Below, piece after piece: positions 516 to 17,066 of a DNA stretch of 64,000 nucleotides. The notes below the pieces were generated by a model that was not told the DNA's origin, searched no databases, and saw only the letters and a program-made list of their open reading frames with translations. Every line of letters begins with the position of its first letter. Within the stretch, counting starts at the first letter, position 1. The translations under genes and the position numbers were made by a program. Source of the DNA: Flavobacteriaceae bacterium (GTDB taxonomy: Bacteria > Bacteroidota > Bacteroidia > Flavobacteriales > Flavobacteriaceae); the NCBI GenBank assembly GCA_965659555.1, contig CBFHVY010000002.1, positions 12,287-76,286 of the forward strand, given 5' to 3'.

Positions 516-1415
516 TTATGCGTTAGTTTTTAGGTGTTGTAATGCCTTGTGAAGCGCTGGGTACAGGTATGTAAAATCGGTTTTTTCTAGCTTCGTTGAC
601 GACACTCTGCTTCCCTTTAACAAGATACAAGCCATTTCTCCAAAGACTAATTTTAAGAGGAATGATGGAACTCCTAAAGGTAAAAAAGGGCGTTTGAATA
701 TTTTTGCCAGTGCTTTAGCAAAAGAGTAGTTGGTATAATGCTCGCCTGCAACCGCATTATAAGGACCAGAAAAGTCTTGCTCTTCGATACTCTTACAATA
801 GAGTGTACAAAGATCATCTATATGAATCCATGGCATGTATTGTTTTCCATTGCCTAAAGGACTTATAACAGGTGTTTTCATTTTTGCAAGTGCACCCCCT
901 TGAGCACTCAGAACAATTCCTGTACGCAATACTACCGTTCGTATTCCTAAGCTATTAAACTGTGCGCTTGCTTCTTCCCATTGTTTACAAACCATACCCA
1001 AGAAATCACTAGCAGGCGCATCATTTTCTTCGAAGATAGTTTCGCTAGTTAGGCTTCCATAGTAGCCTGTTGCCGAAGCAGCCACAAAAGCTTTAAGAGG
1101 GATGTCGAGTTTTTGTACGGTATCAAACAGCAGTTGTGTGGAGTTTACTCTACTCTCTAAAATCACTTGCTTACGTTGCTTTGACCACCGTTGATCTGCA
1201 ATACCTGCACCTGCGAGGTGTACAATCGCATCGATGTTTACAAAAGCCTCCTCGTCTATAGTTCCTTTAGCTATATCCCAACCATAGGTGGGATAGGGTC
1301 CTTTATTAGAAGAACGTCTACTCAATAAGGCAACTTCGTATCCTTTAGAAACCAACATTTCACAAAGACGAGCACCTACAAGACCAGTACCCCCAGAAAC
1401 TAATATTCTTTTCAT
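516..1415 (-). CDS. TIGR01777-family NAD(P)-dependent epimerase/oxidoreductase
   Basis: SGGTGLVG Rossmann motif, HLAGAGIA, MPWIHIDD, GPYNAVA, C-terminal DUF1731-like segment. Confidence 0.9.
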   Translation of the reverse strand: MKRILVSGGTGLVGARLCEMLVSKGYEVALLSRRSSNKGPYPTYGWDIAKGTIDEEAFVNIDAIVHLAGAGIADQRWSKQRKQVILESRVNSTQLLFDTVQKLDIPLKAFVAASATGYYGSLTSETIFEENDAPASDFLGMVCKQWEEASAQFNSLGIRTVVLRTGIVLSAQGGALAKMKTPVISPLGNGKQYMPWIHIDDLCTLYCKSIEEQDFSGPYNAVAGEHYTNYSFAKALAKIFKRPFLPLGVPSFLLKLVFGEMACILLKGSRVSSTKLEKTDFTYLYPALHKALQHLKTNA

Positions 1416-1470
1416 TAGTTAAAAATAGGCAATCTTTTTTACAAAGAAGTGGGTACATATTCAAAAAAAG

Positions 1471-1881
1471 TTATAAAAATAAAGCACAGATAATCAAGGT
1501 ATTAGCATAAAAATATAAAAAAAATGACATTTTTTTTACTCCTACTAAAACCGACCCTCCAGTTTTCTCGTAAGTAAGGGTGTATTGAGCATCAAGTTTT
1601 TTGCCAGCCATGTTAAAGTTTTTAGAACGAGTTTTGTCAATAGCCGTATTTCTAGCAATATTGAGAATCCAGGTAAAAAAACGCCCTTTTTCAGGAGCAT
1701 AACTTTCTGCATTATTCCATGCCTTTACAAAAACATCTTGAGCAAGTTCTTCGGCAATGTCATGACTTCGAACAATATTATAGACTATACCCAAAACATT
1801 TTCATGGTACATCTCATATATTTTCTCGAAGGCCTTTACGTCTTTGGCTCTAAAATTTAGTACTAGTTCTTCTTGATTCAT
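1471..1881 (-). pseudogene. ECF sigma factor truncated after region 2 (no region 4)
   Basis: Good sigma-2 (AEELAQDVFVKAW...FFTWILNIARNTAIDKTRS). After ~aa 100 it reads into AT-rich non-sigma sequence and stops at 136 aa. Confidence 0.7.
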
Positions 1882-1927
1882 GGGGGGTTATAGAGTTATA
1901 AAAATACTTAAAAAAATAGGGATACCA

Positions 1928-1959
1928 TAAAAAAAGCCGGAATCAAAGATTCCGGCTTT
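1928..1959 (-). terminator. Rho-independent terminator of the metalloprotease gene
   Basis: AAAGCCGGAATC-AAA-GATTCCGGCTTT hairpin with an A-run to its left (U-tract on the - strand). Confidence 0.8.
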
Positions 1960-1981
1960 GCGTATAATTCAAAGGATTTTC

Positions 1982-4585
1982 TTATTTAATTTCCTCCATC
2001 GCATTGGTAATTAACGTTTTGATATGGTTTTTGTGTGCTTTTGTAGACACATTTCCAGTACCATTACTTACCCAAGTTTTGATGTTTTTTAAATTGTAAA
2101 TCGCCATAGATTTAGCTGCGATAGAAAAACGTCTACTGCTGTTCCCTGTCACCATTCCAATTAATCTAGTGGTATATACCGCTTGTAAATTCTGACGGAA
2201 AGAATTGATGTTTCCATATACATCTGGCTTAAACATAGCATTGTTAAGGTCAGTCATAAAAGAAGCTAAACTATATTCGTTTCCATACAATTCAGAATCA
2301 GCAATACGTTGTAAGGTATTAGGATGCATAATATGCGCTAAAACTCTATTTTGATACCCTAAGATTCTATCGTGAATTTTTGGATCTTCTGGTCCACCAA
2401 AGAAATTATATCCTCTACGTTGTGGCGCTAAGTAATTATATAATTCTTTAGGAGCAGCAAATGCATCAGGAGCAAATACATACTTCTTTAATGCATCCAT
2501 GGCTCTTTTCTGATCTTTTAAACTTACAGGCGTATAGGGTTTTGTTCCCCCTTTTTGACCAGCCATAGCTCTATCTACATATACTCCACCAATAAAACGA
2601 GAGATTACATCACCAGCTCTAGCCGACTGTCCATTTAAAATAGCATAGGCTTGATTTAGTTGCATATACGTTTCTCCTTTTTTAGTAAAACGATCTTGAA
2701 TATCTTTCATCATAGTGTTTACCAATTCAAAACGATTGATTGAATAGGTAATCTGATCATTAGATAAATCTCCAGTCATTACACGTGGGTCAATAGCTTT
2801 TCCTGGGCTACGCATATCATCGGCATCGTTACCAAAAATGTGTTCTGGCTTAGTAGACTCATTCAATAAAGCAGTCATTTCTGCTTCATTTTTAAAGTCC
2901 TGGTATCCAAATTTGATTGCCCAGATATCGTAAGGACCAACAGCCATATCATAGTATTGTCCTTGTTTAGTTCTGTCGTTAGTTAGGTTGATACCCGCAT
3001 AATCCATTACAGAACCAGTTAAGGCTTTTCCTTTAATAAAATCGGCATCAGCTAATTGCTCAGGCGAGAATAATTGACTCGCTTTCATGTTGTGGTTTAA
3101 TCCTAAAGTATGCCCTACTTCGTGCATAATTAAAGATTTCATTCCTTCTTTTTTCATGCCTTCCATTTCTAAGTCAGACGCACCCGTAGCCGCTAAAACA
3201 ATTTTACCAAACATATTGTTTTCGTGCATCATGTGTCCTTTAGAACAGTATAAGAATTCTTTATTTTGAAGCATTTTAAGCTTTTGCTCTTCGTCAGATT
3301 CTAAACCGTAGTTTGCTGCGGTTGTAAATACTCTGTCGTAATACACTCTGTTAGTAAAGTGTACATATTCTAACATAATGTCTGCTCCTAAAATTTCACC
3401 TGTTCTAGGGTTAACAAAACTAGGTCCGTATCCTCCAAAAGGTGGGTTAGGCGAAGAAGTCCAACGCAATACATTGTAGCGTACATCACCAGCATCCCAA
3501 TCAGCATCATCTGGTTGCACTTTTACTACCATGGCATTTTTAAAACCAGCGGCTTCAAAGGCTTCGTTCCATGCTAATACTCCTTCTTTAATGGTTTCTC
3601 TAAATTCCATTGGTGTAGAGTTTTCTATCCACCAAGTAATTGGTGTTACAGGCTCAGAAACAGCAGCGTTAGGATCTTTTTTAACCAATCTCCAACGGTG
3701 AATCATATCTCTATAGTTCACAACAGCGGTAGAGGTCATGTCATTGGTTTGTGTTAAGAAATACCCTACACGAGGATCGTCCATTCTAGGCGAATATCCA
3801 TCCGCAGGCATATTCATAAAGGTGTGGAATAATTGAATACTTACATTACGACCATCGGTAATTGCTTGAGAACCTCCATTTAAAACACCAGGATTATTAA
3901 ACACATATTCTGTTTTGATGTTGGTGTTTTCTGGATAGTTTTTAATTTCATTAATTCGAGATCTCGTATTATCTAATCTACCTAACGTAAATGAGAAAGG
4001 AGATTGCCCTGGGAATCTTGGGTTTTTAATTCTAGTTAAGGTTTCCGATAAAAATAATTTGGTCGCATCAATTAAATACTCTCCAGTTTTATCGTCTTCA
4101 AATAATAATTTTGCGCTTGCAATAGTAGCATTACTAATGTTGGCATCAGAAGATCTAGAAATAGCATTGTTACTATCGAAGTAAAACGAAGTATTTGGCG
4201 CCATAAAGTCGATTCTGTTAAAGTACTTCTGAATATGAAAAACAGAAGACCCTCTATAAGACCCTCTGAAAGCATTTGCATCGGTAACTCCATTGGCTAC
4301 TTGAGCAAAGTAAATAAAGTCTTTGTCGAGTTGTTCTTTTTTTACCAACATCTTTACAGCACCTGTAACAGTGTCTTGAAAAATGGTAAATAAACCGTCT
4401 ATTTTTTTGCTTCCTTTGGTAAGGCTAGCAACAGATTTTTTTGGTTTCGGTTTTGGTTTTGGAGCAACCACTTCAGTTTGCCCTTTCTTCTTGCGCTTTT
4501 TACGTTGAGCATCCATATCTTGAACGCCTACAACAGCACATACCAAAAATAGGGACAATAAAAATTTAATTTTTTTTGAATACAT
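1982..4585 (-). CDS. Zinc-dependent metalloprotease (DUF5117/DUF4953, EcxA-like), secreted
   Basis: Signal peptide, DPRVGYF, HEVGHTLGLNHN zincin motif, SVMDY Met-turn. Confidence 0.9.
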   Translation of the reverse strand: MYSKKIKFLLSLFLVCAVVGVQDMDAQRKKRKKKGQTEVVAPKPKPKPKKSVASLTKGSKKIDGLFTIFQDTVTGAVKMLVKKEQLDKDFIYFAQVANGVTDANAFRGSYRGSSVFHIQKYFNRIDFMAPNTSFYFDSNNAISRSSDANISNATIASAKLLFEDDKTGEYLIDATKLFLSETLTRIKNPRFPGQSPFSFTLGRLDNTRSRINEIKNYPENTNIKTEYVFNNPGVLNGGSQAITDGRNVSIQLFHTFMNMPADGYSPRMDDPRVGYFLTQTNDMTSTAVVNYRDMIHRWRLVKKDPNAAVSEPVTPITWWIENSTPMEFRETIKEGVLAWNEAFEAAGFKNAMVVKVQPDDADWDAGDVRYNVLRWTSSPNPPFGGYGPSFVNPRTGEILGADIMLEYVHFTNRVYYDRVFTTAANYGLESDEEQKLKMLQNKEFLYCSKGHMMHENNMFGKIVLAATGASDLEMEGMKKEGMKSLIMHEVGHTLGLNHNMKASQLFSPEQLADADFIKGKALTGSVMDYAGINLTNDRTKQGQYYDMAVGPYDIWAIKFGYQDFKNEAEMTALLNESTKPEHIFGNDADDMRSPGKAIDPRVMTGDLSNDQITYSINRFELVNTMMKDIQDRFTKKGETYMQLNQAYAILNGQSARAGDVISRFIGGVYVDRAMAGQKGGTKPYTPVSLKDQKRAMDALKKYVFAPDAFAAPKELYNYLAPQRRGYNFFGGPEDPKIHDRILGYQNRVLAHIMHPNTLQRIADSELYGNEYSLASFMTDLNNAMFKPDVYGNINSFRQNLQAVYTTRLIGMVTGNSSRRFSIAAKSMAIYNLKNIKTWVSNGTGNVSTKAHKNHIKTLITNAMEEIK

Positions 4586-4790: not shown

Positions 4791-5906
4791 ATGAAAAGAA
4801 GCGGATTTATTTTTACGAAATACGAAGCCCCAGATCAATCTCCCTTCGAAAAATTATTTGAAATATTTAAGGAACTCATCACTTATACCTCTGGTGATTT
4901 TGATGAGGCTATCGATTGGTTAAGGCAATTAGACAAGGAGTATAGCTTAACAACCGATGAGTATACCATCGACGATTTTATTGAAGACCTCAAAGCGAAA
5001 GGATATATTAAAGAAGAAATAGAGCCCGATGGTGCTGGGGGAGGTATGGCCATTACTGCAAAAACAGAACGCGCTATTCGTCAACAAGCATTGCAACATA
5101 TTTTTGGAAAAATAAAACGAAGCGGTTCTGGAAACCATAAAAGTAAAAGCCCCGGAGTAGGCGATGAGCATACAGGAGACTTTAGGGCATATCAATTTGG
5201 AGATGCGCTAGACAAAGTATCAGTCACGGAGAGTTTAAAAAATGCGCAAATCAATCACGGTATAGGAAACTTTAACTTAACGGAAGAAGATTTAGTGGTT
5301 GAAGAAACAATGCACAAAGCTCAAATGAGTACCGTGTTAATGATTGATATTAGTCATAGTATGATTTTGTATGGAGAAGATAGAATTACCCCTGCAAAAA
5401 AAGTAGCCATGGCTTTAGCCGAGTTGATTACAACACGTTACCCTAAAGACACTCTTGATATTTTGGTGTTTGGAAATGATGCTTGGCCAATCTCAATTCA
5501 AGAGTTACCCTATTTAAAAGTAGGCCCCTATCATACCAATACTGTAGCAGGACTCCAATTGGCTATGGATATGTTGCGTAGAAAACGGAATACGAATAAA
5601 CAAATTTTTATGATTACCGATGGGAAACCAAGTTGCTTGAGAATGCCCGACGGACAGTATTATAAAAATAGTAATGGACTAGATTCCTTTATTACAAATA
5701 GATGCTATGCCATGGCTCAACAGGCAAGAAAATTGCATATTCCCATAACCACATTTATGATTGCACAAGACCCCTATCTTATGCAGTTTGTAAGTGCATT
5801 TACAAAAGCCAATCAAGGGAAAGCTTTTTATACAGGATTGAAAGGGTTAGGGGAAATGATTTTTGAAGATTATGAAACAAATAGAAAAAAGAGAATACGA
5901 GGATAA
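4791..5906 (+). CDS. von Willebrand factor A domain protein
   Basis: MIDAS elements DISHS, HTNT and ITDG. Confidence 0.85.
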   Translation: MKRSGFIFTKYEAPDQSPFEKLFEIFKELITYTSGDFDEAIDWLRQLDKEYSLTTDEYTIDDFIEDLKAKGYIKEEIEPDGAGGGMAITAKTERAIRQQALQHIFGKIKRSGSGNHKSKSPGVGDEHTGDFRAYQFGDALDKVSVTESLKNAQINHGIGNFNLTEEDLVVEETMHKAQMSTVLMIDISHSMILYGEDRITPAKKVAMALAELITTRYPKDTLDILVFGNDAWPISIQELPYLKVGPYHTNTVAGLQLAMDMLRRKRNTNKQIFMITDGKPSCLRMPDGQYYKNSNGLDSFITNRCYAMAQQARKLHIPITTFMIAQDPYLMQFVSAFTKANQGKAFYTGLKGLGEMIFEDYETNRKKRIRG

Positions 5907-5907
5907 T

Positions 5908-7374
5908 ATGGATACAGCAAGTATTAACACATTAGGAGCTTTAAAAAAAGCAGGATATCAATCTAAATCGATTAAAGATGAATTGCGTCAAAACCTCATT
6001 TCAAAAATAAAGCATAAAGAAACCACGTTTGTCGGAATCCACGGTTATGAAGAAACTGTAATTCCAGAATTAGAGCGTGCCATTTTATCTAAGCACAATA
6101 TTAATTTACTAGGGCTAAGAGGTCAGGCTAAAACACGACTCGCACGATTAATGGTCGACCTTTTAGATGAGTATATTCCCATAGTAGCCGATTCTGAAAT
6201 TAACGATGATCCGCTTCAACCCATCTCTCGATATGCTCAAGAATTGATTGCAGAGAAAGGAGATGACACCCCAATTCAATGGTTGCACAGATCGGCTCGT
6301 TTTGCTGAAAAACTGGCTACTCCAGATGTTACTGTTGCCGATATTATTGGTGATGTAGACCCCATCAAAGCAGCGCATCTTAAATTGAGTTATGCAGATG
6401 ACCGTGTGATCCATTACGGTATGATTCCAAGAGCCAATCGTTGCATTTTTGTGATTAATGAGCTTCCCGATTTACAAGCTAGAATTCAGGTGGCCTTATT
6501 TAATATTTTACAGGAAGGCGATGTTCAAATCCGAGGCTTTAAATTGCGTTTGCCTTTAGATATGCAGTTTGTGTTTACGGCAAACCCAGAAGACTATACC
6601 AATAGAGGAAGTATAGTAACCCCACTAAAAGATAGAATAGGGTCTCAAATTTTAACCCATTATCCAGAAGATATTGAAACTGCAAAAGTTATTACCCAAC
6701 AAGAGGCAAAATTAGACCGCAGATTATTAGATACTGTTTTTGTTCCCGAACTCGCCAAAGACCTATTAGAGCAAATTGTTTTTGAAGCAAGAGATAGTGA
6801 GTATATCGATGCTAAAAGTGGGGTAAGCGCCCGTTTAAGTATTACGGCTTATGAGAACTTAATTAGTACAGCAGAACGAAGAGCACTGCGTTCTGGAGCA
6901 CAACACACCAAAGTTCGGTTGAGTGATTTTATGGGAATCATTCCTGCTATTACGGGTAAAGTTGAACTCGTTTATGAAGGAGAACAAGAAGGCGCTTCAT
7001 TTGTAGCGCATACCTTAATTGGTCATGCTGTAAAAGCCTTATTTAAAGAACACTTTCCAAAGATCAAGAAAATTGAAAAGCAAGACGAAGAAACTCCTTA
7101 TGATGGTCTCATCTCCTTTTTCTTTAATAGCGAAGATGAGTTTGAATTGTTGGACGAGCTTTCCGATGAAGCTTATGAACTCTTATTAGATAGTATTCAG
7201 CCTTTAGCAGCACTACTAGACGAATATCACCCAACACTTTCTAAAGAAGAACGCTATTTTATGAAAGAGTTTGTTTTGTGGGGCTTAGTAGAATACAAGA
7301 AACTTAGCAAAGAGCGTTTTGCCGATGGTACTCAGTTTAATGATCCTTACGGAAATTATTTAAGTAGTATTTAA
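5908..7374 (+). CDS. AAA+ ATPase (Mg-chelatase/MoxR-like), partner of the vWA protein
   Basis: GLRGQAKT (Walker A-like), FVINE (Walker B-like), TANPEDY, PLKDR. Likely start is ATG 5908 right after the vWA stop; the track starts at 5863. Confidence 0.8.
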   Translation: MDTASINTLGALKKAGYQSKSIKDELRQNLISKIKHKETTFVGIHGYEETVIPELERAILSKHNINLLGLRGQAKTRLARLMVDLLDEYIPIVADSEINDDPLQPISRYAQELIAEKGDDTPIQWLHRSARFAEKLATPDVTVADIIGDVDPIKAAHLKLSYADDRVIHYGMIPRANRCIFVINELPDLQARIQVALFNILQEGDVQIRGFKLRLPLDMQFVFTANPEDYTNRGSIVTPLKDRIGSQILTHYPEDIETAKVITQQEAKLDRRLLDTVFVPELAKDLLEQIVFEARDSEYIDAKSGVSARLSITAYENLISTAERRALRSGAQHTKVRLSDFMGIIPAITGKVELVYEGEQEGASFVAHTLIGHAVKALFKEHFPKIKKIEKQDEETPYDGLISFFFNSEDEFELLDELSDEAYELLLDSIQPLAALLDEYHPTLSKEERYFMKEFVLWGLVEYKKLSKERFADGTQFNDPYGNYLSSI

Positions 7375-7378
7375 ACCT

Positions 7379-7407
7379 AAAAAAGCCACGCATTGCGTGG
7401 CTTTTTT
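7379..7407. terminator. Bidirectional terminator between convergent genes
   Basis: AAAAAAGCCACGCA-T-TGCGTGGCTTTTTT. Confidence 0.85.
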
Positions 7408-7427
7408 ATGCGTTATACACGATGCTT

Positions 7428-8756
7428 TTAGCGGTATACTCCCGAAGGGAATACCACCACGCTTTCGTGTCCGTTGGCACCAACAGCGGCTACTCCAAAG
7501 AAAAAATTATCAATTACAATACCTTCTAAAATCAGTTCGTTTACATTTTCTACATATCTAAAATGATCCCAAGTAGGGGAAGTGGTGTCTCTCCAATACA
7601 CTTTATATCCTTTCGCGTTAGCAACAGGTTCCCAACGTAACTTCACTGCAGGTTCTACAATACCTCCAATTTCTACATTTTTAGGCGATGGTGGAGCCCA
7701 AGCCAAACTGGCTAAATTTATGGCATTGACAGCCGTAAGTTTTTTAGCGTAATCAAAATTTACAAATTCAAGTTTATCGCCATAATCAATGCCATTTTCA
7801 GTGCGAATATCTTGGTGTTGTTGGGTGTAATTTTCGTGCATTTCCATAATTCGAACTCCAGGAAATCCAACATCATTAAAAGGTCTATGATGTCCTCCTC
7901 GTCCAAAACGATCTAAACGGTAAATCATTTTAGGATTCATTTCTGGCATATAGGTTTGAACAGTTTTGTGAATATAACGTGCTAACTGACGCGAGATTCC
8001 ATCTACTTCACCACCATAAAAACGACGCATTCTACGTGCTCTTTCTGTTTCAGTGGGTGGGGTTGGTTCCGAGAAAATTCTAAAGGTTCTGTTGTCTATC
8101 ACACCGTCTACACCAGTAATATTTCCAATCATATCGTTGTTCATAATACCTATAATTTCCCAATCCTGGTCTTGAGCATATTTGGCTAAACCTTGACCTC
8201 CATAGAGCCCTTGCTCTTCACCAGAAAGTCCAACGTAGATAATACTGTTTTCAAAGCTATATTTCGAAAGTACGCGAGCAGCCTCAATGGTGCCTGCCAT
8301 TCCAGAAGCATTGTCGTTTGCTCCAGGGGAGTCTGAAGTGAAGTCGGTAGCATTTGAGACTCTAGAATCGATATCACCACTCATAATTATAAAACGATTC
8401 GGATATGTTGTTCCTCTTTGTATGGCAACTACATTCACCACTTCTACATCCTTTACAATGCGTCGGCCATCTTTTTTTACTAGATTTTTTTGATAAAAAA
8501 CATCTAAACAGCTCTCGCACTCATTGCTAATATTGTCGAATTCAGATTTTATCCATCTTCTTGCAGCGCCAATACCTCTAGTTGAAGATATGGTGTCGCT
8601 TAAGGTATGTCTGGTTCCAAAATTAACAAGTTGTGTAATATCGCGTTCAATGCGATCTGCCGAAACAGCCGATATGATATCGTAAATTTTAGTGTTGGTT
8701 TGAGCGGTTAATACGCCAGAAAATATAAAGGCGAAAAGTAAACTGTAGTTCTTCAT
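7428..8756 (-). CDS. M28-family aminopeptidase with C-terminal fibronectin III-like domain
   Basis: GDIDSR, GANDNASG, GEEQGL, NNDMIG, GGHHRPF motifs and a signal peptide. Confidence 0.88.
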   Translation of the reverse strand: MKNYSLLFAFIFSGVLTAQTNTKIYDIISAVSADRIERDITQLVNFGTRHTLSDTISSTRGIGAARRWIKSEFDNISNECESCLDVFYQKNLVKKDGRRIVKDVEVVNVVAIQRGTTYPNRFIIMSGDIDSRVSNATDFTSDSPGANDNASGMAGTIEAARVLSKYSFENSIIYVGLSGEEQGLYGGQGLAKYAQDQDWEIIGIMNNDMIGNITGVDGVIDNRTFRIFSEPTPPTETERARRMRRFYGGEVDGISRQLARYIHKTVQTYMPEMNPKMIYRLDRFGRGGHHRPFNDVGFPGVRIMEMHENYTQQHQDIRTENGIDYGDKLEFVNFDYAKKLTAVNAINLASLAWAPPSPKNVEIGGIVEPAVKLRWEPVANAKGYKVYWRDTTSPTWDHFRYVENVNELILEGIVIDNFFFGVAAVGANGHESVVVFPSGVYR

Positions 8757-8758
8757 AA

Positions 8759-10090
8759 TTAGTTGTTTTTAAAATACCAAAAGGGGATGATATCGTCGGT
8801 ACGTATTAGGGTGTCTTTTTCTTTTATAAATAGACTTTTTAATCGTAGCAAATGCTTTCCATCGGAAAGACCTTTAATATTAAGGTAGGTTTCAAAACCT
8901 ATATTTCCTTGTTTGTTTTTAGAAAATAAAAAATCATGTGGATATTCAATACTATCGATAACAATTTTATGAGTGTTGTTAAACGCTTTTAAATAGGTTT
9001 TTGAAAGTCTTCTTTTTTTTGAGTCGGAGATTTTGGAGCTTGAAAAGAAGTTGAGTTCCGATTTTAATCCACGTTCATCATTTTTTGGGATTAATGTAGA
9101 GTCCCAATTAAATATTCTCGATTCTAGATTATTGTTATGTATTCTAAACAATTTTATATACGGGTCTGTAATGACTTTTGACTGTATCGTAGCAGTCTTT
9201 GCAAATATGCGTTGCTCTAAAGAGAGCAGGTCTTCGTAGTGTTCGTGTTTAAACGATTGACTAGAGATTAGCAGGTTTTCTTGAAGGTAATTAGACTTTT
9301 CGTATTTAAATGTTATGAGTATAAGTAGCACTCCATAGATTGGAATGAGTGCATAGAGCAATCGTTTTCCGAAGGTATTGTCTAGAAAATTATAGACTAA
9401 CGGTCTGTAAATAAACGATAGCGTAATGTATCCATACACCCAATAGAAGGGAAAATATATTTTTGAGAGCCATTTATTTCGTTTAAGATATCCCTGTGTT
9501 ATAAAATCAATGGCATTTAAAAAGGTGGCGATTATGATAAAAATAATGAGGAATATTCCGGTAATCTCACCAATTTCATAGGGAATAAAATCTGTTTCTA
9601 ATAGGGTAAAGACAATGAGTAAAATGGTTAACAACACCGCTACTGCCGATAAAACATAAAAAATTAATAAGAATGAAACGGCAAAAAGAATACTACAGTA
9701 ATCTTCTAGGGTGGCGATATATTTGTCGAATGACCCTACTTTTTTTTCTAGATATTTCGTGAATTTTAGACTGTACTTTAACTTTTCATATTCAATATCT
9801 CCAGAAATATATCGAAGTCCTAATGCGCCAATCCATAAGCCTCTTAGAATAACATGAAGAATAAGATTAAAAATAAGAATAGAACAGGCGGCTATGGCAA
9901 TTCCATATAATAGTACAGGGTACACTTGGTTTTCGCTTTGAGCAATAACAAAACCATTAACAATGGGGTCAAAAGCTGTGAATAAACCAAAAATAGCAAA
10001 ACCAGAAATGATCAGTTCAAGCTGCCAACTTTCTTGTTGGAGTTGTGTTAGCCATTCTTTAAAAGAGGTACTTTTATAGTTATTACTCAT
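8759..10090 (-). CDS. Hypothetical multi-pass membrane protein
   Basis: 443-aa ORF with several hydrophobic segments and a soluble C-terminal third; 2 nt from the M28 gene. Confidence 0.75.
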   Translation of the reverse strand: MSNNYKSTSFKEWLTQLQQESWQLELIISGFAIFGLFTAFDPIVNGFVIAQSENQVYPVLLYGIAIAACSILIFNLILHVILRGLWIGALGLRYISGDIEYEKLKYSLKFTKYLEKKVGSFDKYIATLEDYCSILFAVSFLLIFYVLSAVAVLLTILLIVFTLLETDFIPYEIGEITGIFLIIFIIIATFLNAIDFITQGYLKRNKWLSKIYFPFYWVYGYITLSFIYRPLVYNFLDNTFGKRLLYALIPIYGVLLILITFKYEKSNYLQENLLISSQSFKHEHYEDLLSLEQRIFAKTATIQSKVITDPYIKLFRIHNNNLESRIFNWDSTLIPKNDERGLKSELNFFSSSKISDSKKRRLSKTYLKAFNNTHKIVIDSIEYPHDFLFSKNKQGNIGFETYLNIKGLSDGKHLLRLKSLFIKEKDTLIRTDDIIPFWYFKNN

Positions 10091-10131
10091 GGTACTTTTT
10101 AAAACTTAAAGGTAAGGAGATTCTTAACAAC

Positions 10132-10162
10132 AAAAAAAACCATTTCTATATGAAATGGTTTT
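10132..10162 (-). terminator. Terminator after the DUF6249 gene
   Basis: AAAACCATTTC-TATAT-GAAATGGTTTT hairpin with an A-run to its left. Confidence 0.7.
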
Positions 10163-10182
10163 GCTTTTTAAGTCGACTACAG

Positions 10183-10521
10183 TCATTCGTTTTCAAGCTT
10201 CTTAGTAAGGTTAAAGCCTACAAATAGACCGATACCAGCCATTAAGAAAATGGTTCCAGGGTAGGCTACTTCTTCTTCAACCCCCAAGCTACTTACAAAG
10301 GCAGCGATAAAAACTCCTGCACCAATACCCATTAATAAAACGGCTAAGTTTAATGTTAATACCTTCCAAAAAGGGGCTTGTTTTTGATCTCCTTTTCCAA
10401 AGATACTGGCATCTGCTCCTTTTTCAATAAGAGCTAAACGCTCTTTGTTACGTGTTGAAAAGTATAAATAGAATACTCCAAAAAGTGAACCAAATATAAT
10501 GGCTAATACTACTGCTTCCAT
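10183..10521 (-). CDS. DUF6249-like small membrane protein
   Basis: N-terminal TM, RNKERLALIEKG, two further TMs. Confidence 0.75.
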   Translation of the reverse strand: MEAVVLAIIFGSLFGVFYLYFSTRNKERLALIEKGADASIFGKGDQKQAPFWKVLTLNLAVLLMGIGAGVFIAAFVSSLGVEEEVAYPGTIFLMAGIGLFVGFNLTKKLENE

Positions 10522-10566
10522 AATTGTGTTTTTAAATTGTTTATTTTTAATGTGTTTGTAGCATAG

Positions 10567-10593
10567 GACGGATAGCGTTACAAAAAGGTTACA
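10567..10593 (-). promoter_or_regulatory. ECF-type promoter for the DUF6249 gene
   Basis: - strand TGTAACC-N16-CGTC. Confidence 0.6.
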
Positions 10594-10638
10594 ACTTTTT
10601 AAATTTAATTCCTTTTTTAAAAAAAAATGTATCTAAAG

Positions 10639-10665
10639 TGTAACCTTTGTTTCATACTTTTCGTC
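10639..10665 (+). promoter_or_regulatory. ECF-type (autoregulatory) promoter for the sigma factor
   Basis: + strand TGTAACC-N16-CGTC, same spacing as the divergent copy. Confidence 0.6.
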
Positions 10666-10675
10666 ATTATATATA

Positions 10676-11263
10676 ATGACAACCAACAACGACCAACACT
10701 ATATAGATAAAGTATTAAAAGGAGATACGAATGCCTTTGGGCATTTAGTAGACACCTACAAAGATATGGTGTATTCTTTAGCGTTAAAGATGACCAAAAA
10801 TGTTGAAGATGCAGAAGAGGTTTCTCAAGATGCTTTTGTAAAAGCCTATAGTGCTCTTTCTGGATTTAAAGGAGATGCTAAATTTTCTACCTGGTTGTAT
10901 AGAATTGTATACCATACCGGTTTAGATAAAATTAAAAAGAATACCAGTAAACGCAAAGAAGTTGAAATTAATGAGTATACGGGAAATCAAATTCAAAGTG
11001 TAGATGATGTTTTACAGCATATAGATAGAGCAGAGCGTTCCGAAATGATGGCCACCTGTCTCGATCTTTTGCCTACCGATGAACGTACCGTATTGTGGTT
11101 GTTTTATTTTGAAGAAAAAAGTTTAAAAGAAATTATAGCCATAACCGCTATGAGTTCGAGTAATTTAAAAGTAAAGCTACATAGAGCACGAAAAAGATTA
11201 CTCGAGATTGTAAAAAATACTGTTGAACCTGAATTAATAAACCATTATGGAAGATCTAAATAA
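10676..11263 (+). CDS. ECF RNA polymerase sigma factor
   Basis: AEEVSQDAFVKAY, FSTWLYRI and region-4 HTH (SLKEIIA...NLKVKLHRARKRL). Confidence 0.92.
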   Translation: MTTNNDQHYIDKVLKGDTNAFGHLVDTYKDMVYSLALKMTKNVEDAEEVSQDAFVKAYSALSGFKGDAKFSTWLYRIVYHTGLDKIKKNTSKRKEVEINEYTGNQIQSVDDVLQHIDRAERSEMMATCLDLLPTDERTVLWLFYFEEKSLKEIIAITAMSSSNLKVKLHRARKRLLEIVKNTVEPELINHYGRSK

Positions 11264-11651
11264 GCAAAAAGCATATGATACATTTACTAAAAAGTATCTA
11301 AAAGAACTCACCTACGAGCGTCCTTCTAAAGATTTTACGGCTCAGGTTATACAGCGACTTCAAGAACAAGAAAGTATGTCTAAAATACCTGCTACTCCGT
11401 TAATTTCTTTATCCTCTTGGATCGGTATTGCAATTTCTCTTGTTGTTGGACTAGGCTATGCTCTTTCCTTTGAAAGTAAAGGTTGGTTTTCGTTACCTGA
11501 ACTTGATTTGAGTTTTCTAAAAGAGCTGTCGTTTAGCTTACCCACTTTTGAACTCTCCTTGTCTCAAACCATGGTCTATTGTGTGGCCTTTTTTGGTTCA
11601 CTATTGTTGTTTCAACTAGTTGCTTTAAGAGGGTTTTATCAAAAAGTATAA
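11247..11651 (+). CDS. Putative membrane anti-sigma factor
   Basis: Overlaps the sigma gene end; ERPSKDFTAQV N-terminus followed by two TM segments. Confidence 0.6.
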   Translation: MEDLNKQKAYDTFTKKYLKELTYERPSKDFTAQVIQRLQEQESMSKIPATPLISLSSWIGIAISLVVGLGYALSFESKGWFSLPELDLSFLKELSFSLPTFELSLSQTMVYCVAFFGSLLLFQLVALRGFYQKV

Positions 11652-11665
11652 ATCTTGGTACTAGT

Positions 11666-12181
11666 TTAAAAGGCTAGGTACATAATATGGTTTGGATTGG
11701 AATGCTTTGCCGATATTTTAAAATCATAACTTCCCACTCGTGTAAAGCCCATTTTGGTATAAAAAGCAATCGCTCTGTGATTTTCGGTCCATACCGCTAA
11801 CCAGATCCCTTTTTGGCCTGCCTTTTTGGCCAATTGAATATTGAAATCAAATAGTTGTTGTCCGAACCCTTTTCCGTAATATGCTTCTAACATGTACAAG
11901 CGCTCCATTTTAGTAATCGCAGGTTCTGTAACATTAGGATGTGGGGTATTAAAAATCACTTTTGAATATCCGGCTAGAGTCCCTGAGCTAAAGAAGAGGT
12001 AATAGGTATAGTTCGGATGGCTCAGTTCTTCCTCAAAACGTGCAACCGTAAAGTGTGATGTAACATACGAATCAATCTCTTTTTTTGGCGCACTATGTCC
12101 GTGAGCAGGTAAAAAAGAAGCCACACTTAGCGTTGCTAAGGCTGCAGCATCTTGGGGAGTTGCTTTTCTAATGGTTGTCAT
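11666..12181 (-). CDS. GNAT N-acetyltransferase (PaiA-like)
   Basis: MERLYML...YGKGFGQQL, IWLAVWTENHRAIAFY. ATG at 12181 preferred over track start 12190. Confidence 0.85.
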   Translation of the reverse strand: MTTIRKATPQDAAALATLSVASFLPAHGHSAPKKEIDSYVTSHFTVARFEEELSHPNYTYYLFFSSGTLAGYSKVIFNTPHPNVTEPAITKMERLYMLEAYYGKGFGQQLFDFNIQLAKKAGQKGIWLAVWTENHRAIAFYTKMGFTRVGSYDFKISAKHSNPNHIMYLAF

Positions 12182-12233
12182 TTCTAACACACTTTAATAG
12201 GCGCAAAAATACAGCAATAAAAAACATAAATTC

Positions 12234-12269
12234 AAAAAAAAACCTCCTTAGAATTAAGGAGGTTTTTTT
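12234..12269 (-). terminator. htpG terminator
   Basis: AACCTCCTTA-GAAT-TAAGGAGGTT flanked by A and T runs. Confidence 0.85.
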
Positions 12270-12293
12270 GTAGTTAAGTACAACTTAGACTAC

Positions 12294-14177
12294 TTATTTA
12301 ATTAACTCGTAACTGCGTTTAATAAAGTTGGTTAACTCTTCGCCATGCAATAGGTTTTGAGATAATTTCGCTAAATCGAAAGCTTGCTTAATTAAACGTT
12401 GTTGTTTCTTCTCTGTTTTGGTGTTTAGTATTTCTGACACTAACTCGTGGTTGGTATTTACTACCAGGTTATACATTTCTGGTAAGTTACCCATGCCCAT
12501 CATACCGCCACCGGTAGCGCTCATTTCCTTCATTCTTCTCATAAATTCAGGAACGGTAATCATAAATGGAGAAGCATTAGAATCCATAGCCTCTAACTGA
12601 ACGGTATATGTTTCTTTTGGAATGCTATTTTCTAAAATAGGTTTCAGTTTGTCTTTTTCCTCATCGCTCAATTTACTCAATACTGTATCCTCTTTTTTGA
12701 TTAATACATCAATAGGATCTGCATCTACGCGAGCAAATTTTACCTTCTCATTCGACGTTTCTAGTTTTTGCATTAAGTGCGATACAATTGGAGAGTCTAA
12801 TAATAAGACTTCATACCCTTTTTCTTTTGCATCTTGAATATAGCTATGTTGCGCATCTTTGTTTGCTGCATATAAGATAATGTGGTTACCCTCTTTATCT
12901 GTTTGTGCCGCTTTGGTTTTTTCGAGTAACTCGTCAAAGGTAAAGTAGCTATTATCTACCGTTGGGTATAAGGCAAACTTTTTAGCTTTATCGAAGAATT
13001 TGTCTTCAGATAGCATTCCGTATTCAATAATGACTTTTATATCGTTCCACTTTGCTTCAAAGTCTTCTCGGTTGTTTTTAAATAAAGAGCTGAGTTTATC
13101 GGCTACTTTTTTGGTAATATATCCCGAGATTTTCTTTACTGCACCATCGGCTTGTAGGTAACTTCTCGATACGTTTAAAGGAATGTCTGGACTATCAATC
13201 ACCCCTTTTAACATCTGTAAAAAGTCGGGTACTATACCTTCTACATTATCGGTAACAAACACTTGGTTTTGATACAATTGGATTTTATCTTTCTGCATGT
13301 CTAAGTTCTGACTCAACTTAGGGAAGTATAAAATACCGGTAAGGTTAAAAGGATAGTCTACATTGAGGTGAATGTGAAATAAAGACTCTTCAAATTGCAT
13401 TGGGTACAATTCTCTGTAGAAGTTTTTATAGTCTTCCTCTTCTAGATCTGCAGGTTTTTTTGTCCAAGCAGGATCTGTATTGTTGATGATATTATCTACC
13501 GTTATTTTTTCTGGCTTAGCGTCTTTATCTGCTCCTTCTGGTAATGGAAGGGTTTCTTCTTTGGTACCAAATTTAATAGGCACTTGGTTAAAACGATTGT
13601 ATTTGGTAAGCAGTTCTCTAATCTTACTGTCTTCTAAAAACTCGGTAGAGTCTTCTGCAATATGAAGCACTATTTCTGTTCCGCGGTCTGATTTGTCGTG
13701 TGCTTCTAAGGTATATTCTGGCGATCCGTCGCAAGTCCAATGTGCTGCTGGCTCATCTTTGTAAGACTTGGTAATAATTTCTACTTTTTCTGCAACCATA
13801 AAAGCAGAGTAGAATCCTAATCCAAAATGACCAATAACTCCGGTGTCATTTTTATCGTCTTTGTATTTTTCTAAAAATTCTTCGGCACCAGAAAAAGCAA
13901 TTTGGTTGATGTATTTTTCAACCTCTTCGGCGGTCATTCCAAGTCCTTGATCTTTAATGGTGAGTGTTTTCTTTTTCTTGTCGATGCTCACTTCAATCTT
14001 GGTGTCGCCAAGTTCTACTTGAGCTTCTCCAATAGAAATGAGGTGTTTTAATTTGGTGGTGGCGTCTGTACCGTTCGAAATTAATTCTCTTAAAAATATC
14101 TCGTGGTCAGAATATAAAAACTTCTTGATTAATGGAAAGATATTTTCTACCGATACATTAATGTTTCCTGTACTCAT
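12294..14177 (-). CDS. htpG: Hsp90 chaperone HtpG
   Basis: EIFLRELISN, KDQGLGMT, IGHFGLGFYSAF, IPLNVSRSYLQ. Confidence 0.97.
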   Translation of the reverse strand: MSTGNINVSVENIFPLIKKFLYSDHEIFLRELISNGTDATTKLKHLISIGEAQVELGDTKIEVSIDKKKKTLTIKDQGLGMTAEEVEKYINQIAFSGAEEFLEKYKDDKNDTGVIGHFGLGFYSAFMVAEKVEIITKSYKDEPAAHWTCDGSPEYTLEAHDKSDRGTEIVLHIAEDSTEFLEDSKIRELLTKYNRFNQVPIKFGTKEETLPLPEGADKDAKPEKITVDNIINNTDPAWTKKPADLEEEDYKNFYRELYPMQFEESLFHIHLNVDYPFNLTGILYFPKLSQNLDMQKDKIQLYQNQVFVTDNVEGIVPDFLQMLKGVIDSPDIPLNVSRSYLQADGAVKKISGYITKKVADKLSSLFKNNREDFEAKWNDIKVIIEYGMLSEDKFFDKAKKFALYPTVDNSYFTFDELLEKTKAAQTDKEGNHIILYAANKDAQHSYIQDAKEKGYEVLLLDSPIVSHLMQKLETSNEKVKFARVDADPIDVLIKKEDTVLSKLSDEEKDKLKPILENSIPKETYTVQLEAMDSNASPFMITVPEFMRRMKEMSATGGGMMGMGNLPEMYNLVVNTNHELVSEILNTKTEKKQQRLIKQAFDLAKLSQNLLHGEELTNFIKRSYELIK

Positions 14178-14388
14178 AGTTCGTGTGTTTAGTTTTAGTA
14201 TGCTTCCTCTATGTCAAAAAAAATACCAAAAGCAATCTTGTGACAAGATGACAGCACACTATCGTGGTGTTTAGTTTGTGGGGTGCTTTTGGAGTGGAAG
14301 ATTGTAGTTTGTGAAAAAATACGGTAGTATTGGGGTGTTAAGGGGATGTGCATCATACACATTGTTGTGTCTATTGCTTTTAGGTTTT

Positions 14389-16683
14389 GTTGGGCACAGT
14401 TATTCTATTCTTTTTCATTTTCCAGAACTATAAGATCAGCCCTTTCCTTTAGGACCTCTTTACAATAAGATCCAATATTAGTCCCTTTGATTTTAACACT
14501 GTCACCATTCTCTCTTTTGTAACAATCATCATCCATACTAGCTAATCTCGAGTTTTCAAGGGCGCTATCACTTAGAGCTTTTACATCAATTATAGCAATG
14601 GTTTTGCCATTATGTGTGACTTTTCTAATTTTTGGGATTGGATTCAATCCGTCAGTACAACTTGAAATTTTTTGAGACATACTTTGTTTTAAAGTGTCCC
14701 AGTCTTTTTTAATTTTTAGATCTGTAAAATCTATTCCTTTAACCTCCCATGTACCATCTTCAATTCCAATAACTATCCTTCCACCTAAATAATTTGAGAA
14801 TGCTGTTACAGTTTTTATTATTCCCTTGATCGCTTCATCTTTATTTTGATGTAATTCTCCTTGTGCTTTTAGTCTTTTAGTATCTGTAAAGAAAGCTTCT
14901 TTAATTTCTAAGTCGATATGTTCAGAATCTATCTTTAATTTGTCTAAAATTTCAAGTATTTCTGGGTCAGCCATATCCTTCATTAATGCCTCACAGAATT
15001 TAGGTTTTGAAACTCTAATTAGCTTAAGAAAGTCTTTAAAAAGTTGTTGTTTTCCTCCTTCACCGATACGCTTCCAGTTTTTAATTTCCTCTTTGGATCT
15101 CAATTTGTTCACTGAATCAATAATAGGAATCAAATATGTCTCAAATTCATTTTTGACAGTAATATAGTCGTCAATTCTTATTGACTCTAACAGGTCATTT
15201 TTATGAAGCTCCTTTAATACTTCTGTAAACACTTTTAAGAGAGCACCAAATCCTTGATTGGATCTAAGTAGGTTAAGTGTTTTGTCTCTACGATTCCAAT
15301 GTTCTGTACCTCTTTCTTGAATAACTTGAAACCATAGAGAGATTAGTGAAAAAGCGACACTATCTTTTTTATTTGGAATTCTTAAGAGAGACATAGTTGC
15401 TTCGATATCCTCGATAACTTTTTCACTTTTAATAGCAGTGCATACTGACTCTAAAGTTAGTTTTGGCTCCTTTTTAGAATATGCTGCGCTATCATATTTT
15501 ATAATGCCAAACAAAGAACTTTCTTCATTTTCATTTAACGATTTAACCAATGTCGATATTCGATACTTTATATCATCAACTTCTAATATTGTTGGGTAAA
15601 GATCCCACAATAGACTCGGGCTTACTTTGGTTTGCTTTTCATTAATATCAATGAAAGTTTTTATTTGGTCTTCCAAATTCATTTTGTCGAACGCCACCAC
15701 ATAAATGAGGTCCTTAGTAGACTGATCAAGACCATCATATGCAAAAAGTCTATGTTGACCATCTATTACATTAACAGATTGATATTGTTTAGGTAAGGTA
15801 AGTGTTCCGTGTTGTATATCATTAATTGCTTTACCGGCAGGTTTAAAATTATGTTTATCAGATTCTAATGAAATAATGATATTCGTTGGAAAGATTCCGC
15901 GTTCATCACGAATAAACTTCTTAATAGCATTGACTTTAGTTTTTTTAATTAATCGCTGATAATTATGATTTAAATCGTCTTCGAAATCTAATTTCCTATG
16001 GGGAACTGTTGAAAGAGGAATAAGCGTGGAAGGATGTACCCCAAATAAATATGCGTATGATTTACTGCCATATTTGGTTCTTATTGCTGGTATTGTAAGA
16101 TCTTCAGAAGTCATAGATCTAATTTGTTGGCCTTTACACAAATAAGACACTAACTGGAAATAGGCCAATCTTGAGTATTGACTTTTGAGTTCAATAAAAT
16201 ACTCTATGATTGCTGGGTTCAAATAGACAATACCTTTTCTATTTAGTTTTTCTCTATCAGTGTCTGAGATAGATCTATTATTACAGTACACGAAAACGAC
16301 ATTTTTTTTCTCTGTTTCGGGATTACCTGATTCATATTTTCTAATGTCATCTACTTCAGAGGACCATTGTTTAATCTTTAGAGAGTCATTTTGCTGAGTT
16401 GTACATTCAATATAAATTCTTGACTCATTTGATTCAGCTATTACGTCTATTTTTTTTGATGATAATTCAGATTCCTTTTTTCCATATTTAACTTCGCACT
16501 CTCTTCCGATATTAAGTTTTTCAAAACCTAATTTGTAAAACAATAACCAAGCTTCATTTTCTAAAGCCTCATCATTTTGAACCTCTTCACTTTCTCTTTT
16601 CTTTGCTTCTGTTTTGAGTAATGACTTCGAATCATTAAAGTTGTCTGAAATTATTATCATATGTTTTTTTTATTGTGCCCAAC
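14389..16683 (-). mobile_element. Solitary integron-like gene cassette carrying the DGQHR-Schlafen gene
   Basis: On the - strand GTTGGGCACA (16683-16674; GTTRRRY core) lies 13 nt before the ATG, and TGTGCCCAAC (14398-14389; RYYYAAC inverse core) lies 6 nt after the stop. The two are perfect reverse complements. No integrase in the window. Confidence 0.55.
14405..16660 (-). CDS. Three-domain protein: PD-(D/E)xK-like N-terminus, DGQHR (DndB-like) domain, C-terminal Schlafen/AlbA_2 domain; candidate defence protein
   Basis: KKIDVIAE...IYIECTT; FPTNIIIS...VNVIDGQHRLFAY...TFIDINEKQTKV; SEHIDLEIKE...KTVTAFSNYLGGRIVIGIED...CYKRENGDSV. Confidence 0.85.
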   Translation of the reverse strand: MIIISDNFNDSKSLLKTEAKKRESEEVQNDEALENEAWLLFYKLGFEKLNIGRECEVKYGKKESELSSKKIDVIAESNESRIYIECTTQQNDSLKIKQWSSEVDDIRKYESGNPETEKKNVVFVYCNNRSISDTDREKLNRKGIVYLNPAIIEYFIELKSQYSRLAYFQLVSYLCKGQQIRSMTSEDLTIPAIRTKYGSKSYAYLFGVHPSTLIPLSTVPHRKLDFEDDLNHNYQRLIKKTKVNAIKKFIRDERGIFPTNIIISLESDKHNFKPAGKAINDIQHGTLTLPKQYQSVNVIDGQHRLFAYDGLDQSTKDLIYVVAFDKMNLEDQIKTFIDINEKQTKVSPSLLWDLYPTILEVDDIKYRISTLVKSLNENEESSLFGIIKYDSAAYSKKEPKLTLESVCTAIKSEKVIEDIEATMSLLRIPNKKDSVAFSLISLWFQVIQERGTEHWNRRDKTLNLLRSNQGFGALLKVFTEVLKELHKNDLLESIRIDDYITVKNEFETYLIPIIDSVNKLRSKEEIKNWKRIGEGGKQQLFKDFLKLIRVSKPKFCEALMKDMADPEILEILDKLKIDSEHIDLEIKEAFFTDTKRLKAQGELHQNKDEAIKGIIKTVTAFSNYLGGRIVIGIEDGTWEVKGIDFTDLKIKKDWDTLKQSMSQKISSCTDGLNPIPKIRKVTHNGKTIAIIDVKALSDSALENSRLASMDDDCYKRENGDSVKIKGTNIGSYCKEVLKERADLIVLENEKE

Positions 16684-17019
16684 TATGTGCTAAGTGTATA
16701 TGGCATTTACTCATTTCTATCCTTAAGGATAGGAAGCCCCTTAAAATCCTCATCATACGCCTCTAAAAGCGATCGAGTGCTTGTTTATGATTTGCAAGAG
16801 ATGTTCAGTTTTTAAAACTATTAAAAAATAGTTAGACTTACCTCATTTGTATTGGTGAAATTTTAAACCCACCAAAACTAGTTAAACGCAAAAGCTATAT
16901 TAAAGCGTCATACAAAAACCACAGGAGTTGCGAATAACAACACAAAATGAGATTACGCTTGTTATAGGTGCTGTACCGCTGAATGTTGGCATCACCCTTT
17001 TGAGTTGATTTTTTATTGG

Positions 17020-17027
17020 TATTTTTG
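17020..17027 (+). promoter_or_regulatory. Bacteroidota sigma-A -7 element for fabH
   Basis: TATTTTTG matches TAnnTTTG, with TTTG at 16999-17002 upstream. Confidence 0.45.
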
Positions 17028-17066
17028 TTACCTTGTACAACAAACAAACAAATTCAACGGATAAAT

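Follow-up and report, generated by a model that had tools for sequence, protein, structure and literature searches.

The locus studied here lies on contig CBFHVY010000002.1 of a Flavobacteriaceae bacterium, in a stretch of 64,000 nucleotides (hereafter the window), and it raises the question of what a 751-amino-acid open reading frame (ORF) is doing between the genes htpG and fabH. The ORF occupies positions 14405-16660 of the minus strand, exactly where a reading made earlier from the DNA letters (the sequence-only reading) had found it and proposed its product as a candidate single-gene anti-phage system. We consider it fairly probable that this product, here called P0001, is a horizontally acquired anti-phage sensor-effector in a single polypeptide, of the prokaryotic Schlafen (pSlfn) kind. 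From its N-terminus, the whole ORF comprises a nuclease fold, a DGQHR domain, a helical linker and a Schlafen RNase.

The putative effector is the Schlafen/AlbA_2 RNase core at residues about 576-751 (14408-14935, minus strand). Pfam SLFN_AlbA_2 (PF04326) matched residues 598-724 (E 1.5e-12, 48.5 bits against a cutoff of 25.3). When the last 190 residues were made into a profile, sequence alone sufficed to find human SLFN14 (E 7e-9), SLFN5, SLFN11, rat SLFN13 and SLFN12, with the segment 'AFaNylGGeiviGieD' aligned with 'AFANTQGGYVLIGVDD' of SLFN14. The AlphaFold2 model of P0001, built on 41 relatives, has a mean predicted local distance difference test score (pLDDT) of 87.2, and in a Foldseek comparison with the PDB its Schlafen group of matches consisted of 3lmm, SLFN13, SLFN11, SLFN14, SLFN5 and the tRNase domain of SAMD9.

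Conservation was assessed in an alignment of 41 full-length relatives, which range from 81% to 30% identity. The catalytic Ex4ExK motif (E580, E585 and K587, within EHIDLEIK at residues 580-587; 14900-14923, minus strand) is invariant down to 30% identity, as are N623, G626, G627 and G632. The acidic residue of the segment G632-I-E-D635 (14756-14767, minus strand), D635, is aligned with that of the SLFN14 'GVDD' sequence; it is present in at least 90% of the relatives and invariant within the 13-sequence C-terminal alignment. Because the Ex4ExK motif and D635 are conserved, the Schlafen active site looks intact, and so, judged by these residues, does the catalytic core as a whole. The sequence-only reading had proposed a C-terminal Schlafen/AlbA_2 domain with an intact E-x4-E-x-K motif, followed by TAFSN..GGRIVIG; both elements are there, the motif at the position given, and the C-terminus models as AlbA_2.

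The central DGQHR domain that had been proposed was also recovered. It is of the DndB/DpdB ParB/Srx-like type and covers residues 192-481 (15218-16087, minus strand), over which NCBIfam TIGR03187 matched with an E value of 2.5e-34 (119 bits against a cutoff of 58.9); Pfam DndB (PF14072) matched residues 208-410 (E 2.7e-14, above the gathering score). DUF262 and DGQHR are related ParB/Srx-fold domains with common QR, DGQ(Q/H)R and FxxxN motifs, and QR, DGQHR and F...N are the signature motifs of the DGQHR domain (PMC4619093). In P0001 the QR pair (residues 235-236), the DGQHR pentapeptide (residues 300-304; 15749-15763, minus strand, again as first located), F336 and N340 are all invariant among the aligned relatives, and by these residues the nucleotide-binding signature is intact. 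A search with Pfam found no DUF262/GmrSD_N match in P0001, and a weak GmrSD_N match (E 0.062) in only one relative. Between the DGQHR domain and the RNase core lies an all-helical linker (residues about 482-575; 14936-15217, minus strand; pLDDT 77-95 in the AlphaFold2 model), to which no hidden Markov model (HMM) of Pfam, NCBIfam or PADLOC matched.

The DGQHR domain of P0001 is nearest to the DpdB and DndB models, and DndB is an ATP-modulated regulator (PMC4507180). P0001 could by this likeness have a role outside defence, either as a DndB/DpdB-like regulator or accessory factor of DNA modification or as an AlbA_2-type transcriptional regulator, and some plasmid homologues adjoin a cluster of a small DGQHR protein, a radical SAM protein and an ATPase. 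We regard such a role as extremely doubtful. The scores of P0001 fall far under the equivalog cutoffs (NF041060 DpdB, 76.6 against 300; TIGR03233 DndB, 35.9 against 328; TIGR04172 (DGQHR_dnd_1), 56.1 against 450), and no dnd or dpd genes lie nearby, so the earlier statement that this is not a standard Dnd regulator holds. The conserved catalytic RNase residues and the patchy, horizontal distribution described below also speak against it.

The N-terminal residues, about 1-185 (16106-16660, minus strand), were assigned to a NERD/Card1-like PD-(D/E)xK-fold domain from Foldseek, the HMM matches of relatives and the secondary structure of the model. The nuclease group of Foldseek matches consisted of the Can2, Card1 and Cdn1 nuclease domains, VC1899, AF1548 and R.BspD6I. 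In relatives, NERD, Card1_endonuc, Hjc and CARF_PDDEXK HMMs matched at residues homologous to about 26-199 of P0001, and NERD reached 32.2 bits against a cutoff of 22.1 at the homologous N-terminal residues of relative P0104. A sequence search of the PDB gave no match for the N-terminal or DGQHR parts.

The nuclease motif of this domain, D72 ... E85-C86-T87 (16400-16447, minus strand), is degenerate. Among the aligned relatives, D72 never varies and E85 is kept in at least 90%. The position of the (D/E)xK lysine is T87 in P0001 and is Thr or Ser (IECT-type) in every member of its clade, whereas sister clades have E-C-K at the same position; the complete catalytic D...(D/E)xK triad was therefore not found in P0001. 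Since the motif lysine is Thr or Ser across the clade, DNA cleavage by the N-terminal domain is doubtful. Two residues slightly downstream, K93 and K95, may in principle stand in for the lysine. The PD-(D/E)xK-like segment of the sequence-only reading thus stands as a fold and falls as a motif.

Comparison with more distant proteins suggests how these parts are divided in function. A profile search of 1.84 billion representative proteins gave 6,959 matches at E<=1e-3 and 633 clusters at E<=1e-30. Among the best 150 matches, about 36 extend through the Schlafen region; most of the others align to residues about 15-590 only and have a different C-terminal domain, a HEPN RNase recognized by RNxxxH motifs, Swt1-like HEPN Pfam matches and PADLOC PDC-M34B-like matches. 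The layout of this large superfamily is nuclease fold, DGQHR domain, helical linker and RNase, with HEPN commoner than Schlafen in the last place, and a few members have Mrr_N or DUF4357 additions.

A FastTree phylogeny of the common chassis of 138 proteins contained two separate Schlafen clades. Clade A (23 rows, 99% local support) has an EC[T/S] N-terminal domain and holds P0001; clade B (14 rows, 100% local support) has an ECK N-terminal domain and is nested among the HEPN forms. Because the Schlafen proteins fall into two clades, the tree shows the nuclease fold, DGQHR domain and linker as a conserved chassis whose RNase slot has switched at least twice between HEPN and Schlafen, two unrelated RNase superfamilies. 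Among the comparative evidence, this exchange speaks most strongly for an effector at the C-terminus and a sensor or regulator in the front part, and it offers a natural experiment on how an RNase effector is gated. Members encoded on pNL1 and on Agrobacterium/Rhizobium plasmids were recovered with tblastn, and we infer that the pNL1 match is Saro_3948 itself. Proteins of the Saro_3948 type, ParB-HEPN fusions that represent the HEPN sister architecture, were catalogued computationally in 2013 (Anantharaman et al., PMC3710099).

The gene is an accessory one: vertical conservation at the htpG-fabH locus in all relatives, an outcome that would count against the sequence-only reading, was rejected, as a P0001 homologue is absent from all 36 same-genus genomes and the gap is often empty. 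Only one of 24 same-order genomes has a relative, 29% identical. In 18 congeners htpG and fabH adjoin each other divergently, with 160-350 bp between them. An alignment with these 18 empty sites found conserved promoter blocks beside htpG and fabH, between which the window has about 2.75 kb extra; the inserted segment lies approximately at 14263-17010 and has a guanine-plus-cytosine (GC) content of 32.5%. The P0001 gene itself has a GC content of 31.7%, the lowest among the 62 ORFs of the window (mean 36.7%, standard deviation 2.4, z = -2.0), and at third codon positions 23.7% against about 35% for htpG and fabH. The AT-richness noted before is therefore real, though modest. These comparisons show that the P0001 gene is a horizontally acquired accessory gene of patchy distribution.

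The insertion site is a variable spot in the genus. Unrelated cargo of 1.3-8 kb occupies the gap in 11 of 29 congeners (L033-L043) and includes a GFO/IDH-type oxidoreductase, a Na+/solute transporter, a nucleotidyltransferase with a kinase, an S9 peptidase, an MFS transporter, a GMC oxidoreductase and lipoproteins. We considered the gap as a defence hotspot and rejected this, since the cargo of the other congeners is of a non-defence kind. Of the two bounding genes, htpG is at 12294-14177 on the minus strand and fabH is on the plus strand; the ORF list gives fabH a TTG start at 17016, and alignment with 18 congeners puts the conserved ATG at 17064. A TATTTTTG box (Bacteroidota -7 type) is found near the fabH start, at 17020-17027.

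The genes around the relatives of P0001 bear on what it might sense. Of about 22 independent loci in clade A, about 11 encode a DNA methyltransferase at a distance of one to three genes, and most of the relatives' loci with enough flank have defence-gene neighbours. In the branch of 30% identity, all six loci (L143-147 and L149) have a D12 methyltransferase that lies immediately upstream of the gene or overlaps it. Elsewhere in clade A we found Dam, DpnII and an N6_N4 methyltransferase (L046); Dam and PDDEXK_11 (L047); a cluster of HTH, Dam, DpnII, HEPN-type paralogue, N6_N4 and NOV_C genes, downstream of the Schlafen-type gene (L048); a MazG-like protein, SLFN-g3 helicase, Dam, DpnII, N6_N4, HEPN RiboL-PSP, PLD-helicase and YhcG (L056); an N6_N4 methyltransferase (L141); and a C5 methyltransferase (L138). 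Other clade-A loci have a PIN toxin-antitoxin pair (L045) or a WYL-WCX regulator (L135), and the contig encoding P0051 has HNH, HIT, SLFN-g3 helicase, MazG-like, PLD-helicase-DUF3427, NUDIX, caspase, WYL and T5orf172 proteins. In the HEPN clade, an MT-A70 gene lies 15 bp upstream in L213 and a D12 gene overlaps the start in L214.

No methyltransferase lies beside the gene in the other loci, among them L044, L054, L055 and the window. The window copy is an orphan without a partner gene, and neither a credible small partner ORF nor an Rfam RNA match was found in its flanks. The description of the system as standalone, made in the sequence-only reading, thus fits the window copy and not the family, about half of whose loci have an adjacent DNA methyltransferase. 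A solo gene of this size makes a compact 2.3 kb construct, in which sensing by the chassis could be studied without a partner.

Several of the neighbourhoods deserve description in their own right. The D12 and Schlafen-type loci of the 30%-identity branch look like a two- or three-gene operon resembling restriction-modification (R-M), with an RNase-bearing subunit; a 151-aa PDDEXK_11 gene lies between the D12 methyltransferase and the Schlafen-type gene in L146 and L047. The L048 metagenomic island has two superfamily paralogues (1316-3562 and 6352-8649), the Schlafen-type first and the HEPN-type inside a DpnII cassette, where it sits between DpnII and the second methyltransferase. The closest metagenomic homologue, 81% identical (L050-L052), is directly preceded by a DUF6161 gene (411 aa) and followed by an IS110-family transposase, neither of which is in the window. 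On the plasmids L225 (Agrobacterium, 5830-12534) and L226 (pNL1, 5791-12289), a large DGQHR-HEPN protein adjoins a conserved trio of a small DGQHR protein, a radical SAM protein and an ATP-binding protein, which may be a different DNA-modification partner module.

An operonic Dam/D12 or MT-A70 methyltransferase directly upstream, as is frequent among the relatives, would also be expected of a DNA-targeting restriction enzyme, Type II-like where a methyltransferase is present and Type IV-like where the gene is alone. The N-terminal fold or the ParB-like domain would then cut DNA, and the Schlafen/AlbA_2 domain would serve for nucleic-acid binding or as a secondary effector. The canonical D...ECK motif is kept in the HEPN clade and in Schlafen clade B, ParB/Srx proteins can nick DNA, and the DUF262-HNH enzymes GmrSD, SspE and BrxU restrict modified DNA (PMC4619093, PMC12839542). 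We nevertheless think a restriction enzyme unlikely. The motif lysine is replaced throughout the clade of P0001 while the Schlafen catalytic triad is invariant, the C-terminal slot is always filled from an RNase superfamily, either HEPN or Schlafen, and the window copy has no methyltransferase partner.

The DpnII cassettes suggest a further arrangement, in which the RNase would be held latent by R-M or methyltransferase proteins and would fire upon phage anti-restriction, the window copy being a stranded remnant. PrrC is the classical precedent for such a guard, and it has been suggested that RNases of the Schlafen and HEPN types, encoded next to BREX and R-M loci, serve as a suicidal backup (PMC12839542). 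DpnII cassettes adjoin the gene in L046 and L056, and in L048 a HEPN-type paralogue is inside the DpnII operon with a Schlafen-type copy 0.5-3 kb from the same cassette. This explanation is quite improbable for P0001, given that many loci, the window included, have no R-M neighbour and that the commonest coupled form is a methyltransferase with a Schlafen-type protein alone, leaving no separate nuclease to guard. Moreover, the solo copies that are 80% identical remain intact and conserved, which argues against decay.

The ORF is tightly bracketed by an inverted repeat. One arm, GTTGGGCACA (14389-14398, plus strand), comes within 6 nt of the stop codon (14405-14407); the other, TGTGCCCAAC (16674-16683, plus strand), is its exact complement and lies 13 nt upstream of the ATG. 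Perfect inverted repeats of 10-11 bp, placed 13-28 nt before the ATG and 1-6 nt past the stop, occur in the window, in L133 (upstream GTTGGCAATA, downstream TATTGCCAAC) and in L134 (upstream TGTTGGCCACA, downstream TGTGGCCAACA); L055 has arms of 9 bp (upstream GTTGTGTGC, downstream GCACACAAC), and those of L135 and L139 have one mismatch. The arm sequences vary from locus to locus, with complementarity and geometry kept. Among 486 cross-locus control pairs none reached 10 bp, and 1.9% reached 9 bp. The repeat could possibly be an inversion switch, a set of operators for the protein's own ParB-like domain, or a site of pairing between the 5' and 3' ends of the mRNA.

Two other identities of the arms were rejected. 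The window 10-mer has eight copies in the genome, and the other six have no common flanking similarity, so it is not a genomic repeat element. The arms also resemble integron core sites (GTTRRRY/RYYYAAC), with GCCCAAC after the stop and GTTGGGC before the ATG; an integron cassette with attC was rejected for want of an integrase and of a second core site within 150 nt downstream, and because the geometry is that of a terminal inverted repeat.

The repeat raises the possibility that the gene is a mobile cassette of the selfish or addiction type, or a toxic gene under its own control, that persists through mobility or toxicity, with the arms as recombination or inversion sites or as operators for the ParB-like domain. 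The covariation of the arms and the control pairs are in keeping with this, as are the similarity between homologous loci, which begins and stops at the repeat, the position of the gene in a variable gap of the genus, and the IS110 transposase beside one homologue. There is, however, no integrase, invertase or transposase in the window neighbourhood, nor an attC-like second core site; the insert runs on past the repeat by about 125 bp and 325 bp, and most family loci have no repeat at all. We consider a cassette of this kind very unlikely as the explanation, and it would in any case be compatible with a defence function.

The methyltransferases and the repeat can be joined in a broader proposal, which we offer tentatively as no better than an outside candidate: the superfamily would be an R-M-like immunity with an RNase as its restriction arm. 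The ParB-like domain, as a nucleoside triphosphate (NTP) switch, would check for the mark of its partner (N6-methyladenine made by Dam, or the marks of MT-A70, DpnII or radical-SAM partners), and unmarked DNA would lead to cutting of tRNA. Solo copies would be independent of a partner, and the inverted repeat would provide the gene's own operators or an inversion switch that restrains a toxic gene.

For P0001 itself we return to the anti-phage sensor-effector. The nuclease fold and DGQHR module would bind DNA and read some property of the DNA that enters, its modification or methylation state being the likeliest. The modification state is the obvious candidate trigger because of the methyltransferase linkage and the known roles of DGQHR and DUF262 proteins (DndB, DpdB, SspE, GmrSD and BrxU). 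Nucleotide binding or hydrolysis in the DGQHR pocket might then act as a conformational switch that frees the Schlafen domain for cleavage of tRNA and possibly of rRNA or mRNA as well; translation would stop, and phage yield would be lowered by abortive infection or growth arrest. The sequence-only reading had let the DGQHR domain gate a Schlafen RNase in much this manner. Its pairing of sensor and RNase remains the best reading, given the invariant catalytic residues and the presence of HEPN in the same slot of the sister clades. Of the two things it had named as sensed, nucleotides and modified DNA, the linkage in relatives points to sensing tied to DNA modification rather than to nucleotides in general.

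Several observations weigh against this mechanism. The ten nearest genes, among them htpG, fabH, a GNAT gene, a sigma/anti-sigma pair and a TonB receptor gene, gave no dnd/dpd gene and no PADLOC match below E 1e-5, so the window copy is outside a defence island. Its own genome, a 94.7%-complete metagenome-assembled genome, lacks D12, N6_N4 and type I N6 methyltransferases, and the linkage found in relatives cannot apply to it; the only methyltransferase detected was one of the C5 class, on another contig, and the MT-A70 search gave no match, but its control also matched nowhere. The Foldseek output was without query ranges, and its nuclease-fold matches were assigned to the N-terminus because the HMM matches of relatives fall on homologous residues. 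With the motif lysine missing, the part of that domain in binding or catalysis is uncertain. AlbA_2 domains are found also in proteins annotated as regulators.

The orphan state limits what the trigger may be. With no partner gene and no detectable Dam-class (D12) or N4/N6 methyltransferase, the silence of the window copy must come from its own sensor module or from regulation, and not from cognate methylation. Its trigger cannot be a missing cognate adenine mark, at least for the methyltransferase classes that could be tested.

How P0001 stands among known systems can be judged first from the databases. PADLOC gave only partial DpdB and DndB domain matches, so no named system matches P0001; PHROGs gave only generic ParB and helicase-N matches, which were set aside. 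ParB-like DUF262/DGQHR cores fused to HNH, PD-(D/E)xK and HEPN nucleases beside DNA modification systems were described by Makarova et al. in 2013 (PMC3632139). We found no paper that combines DGQHR and Schlafen, in a literature search that did not take in the full list of 55 pSlfn compositions; the only paper with both DndB and Schlafen treats them separately (PMC12839542).

DndB and DpdB have a DGQHR domain homologous to that of P0001, with the same QR, DGQHR and FxxxN motifs, but are about 350 aa long, have no nuclease-fold or RNase domain and occur inside dnd/dpd clusters, of which there is none near P0001. PrrC, of the EcoprrI type I R-M locus, is likewise a tRNA-directed RNase tied to R-M, with an NTPase-type regulatory domain joined to an RNase effector. 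It differs in having an ABC-ATPase and a HEPN-like domain without homology to P0001, whose genome has no R-M partner. GmrSD, BrxU and SspE resemble P0001 in combining a ParB-like nucleotide-dependent domain and a nuclease effector in one protein. They are single-gene defences that sense the modification state of DNA, which for P0001 is no more than a proposal, and they have a DUF1524 HNH DNase as effector and a DUF262 domain that was not matched in P0001.

The ParB-HEPN (Swt1-like) proteins of the Saro_3948 type have the same chassis as P0001 (E 1e-35 to 1e-54, 25-31% identity over 60-77% of the length). They also have the same C-terminal RNase slot and the same kind of methyltransferase neighbourhood, and they were catalogued together with 'HEPN in operon with ParB nuclease and DNA methylase' (PMC3710099). 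They differ in their HEPN (RNxxxH) effector and canonical ECK N-terminal motif, and are known computationally only.

A precedent in function comes from the pSlfn group. Perez Taboada et al. (Nat Microbiol 2026, PMC13056530) described the prokaryotic Schlafens pSlfn1-55 as anti-phage tRNases, among 5,930 prokaryotic Schlafen proteins with a conserved Ex4(E/D)xK motif. Fusion to other domains, in 55 compositions, is found in 97% of these proteins (DUF262 fusions account for 1.8%), and 70% are within 10 kb of a known defence gene. In the same study pSlfn proteins defended E. coli; RorSlfn5 was a phage-triggered tRNase that cleaves the anticodon arm, and EcoSlfn7, a ParB-like DUF262-Slfn protein, reduced T7 plating about 540-fold and protected against other phages too. 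As defence by pSlfn proteins, including a ParB-like fusion, had already been demonstrated, P0001 is not a new class of system. The sequence-only reading did not recognize the architecture as a named system, which holds in that only partial DpdB/DndB matches were found and fails in that the pSlfn kind has a name.

P0001 and EcoSlfn7 are alike as single polypeptides in which a Schlafen core with Ex4(E/D)xK, the presumed effector, is fused to a domain of the ParB/Srx superfamily, and relatives of P0001, like the pSlfn proteins, are enriched near defence genes. The ParB-like domain of P0001 is of the DGQHR (DndB/DpdB) type and that of EcoSlfn7 is DUF262 (DGQQR), so that the two share a superfamily only. 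P0001 has in addition an N-terminal NERD/Card1-like nuclease fold, a helical linker, a C-terminal position of the Schlafen domain and methyltransferase-linked relatives. The methyltransferase linkage suggests that DNA modification state can be coupled to RNA cleavage, which, if true, would blur the boundary between R-M and abortive infection. The demonstration that bacterial Schlafens are anti-phage tRNases is recent and covers only two types of sensor; to these the family of P0001 would add a third, DNA-facing one, made of a nuclease fold and a DGQHR ParB-like switch.

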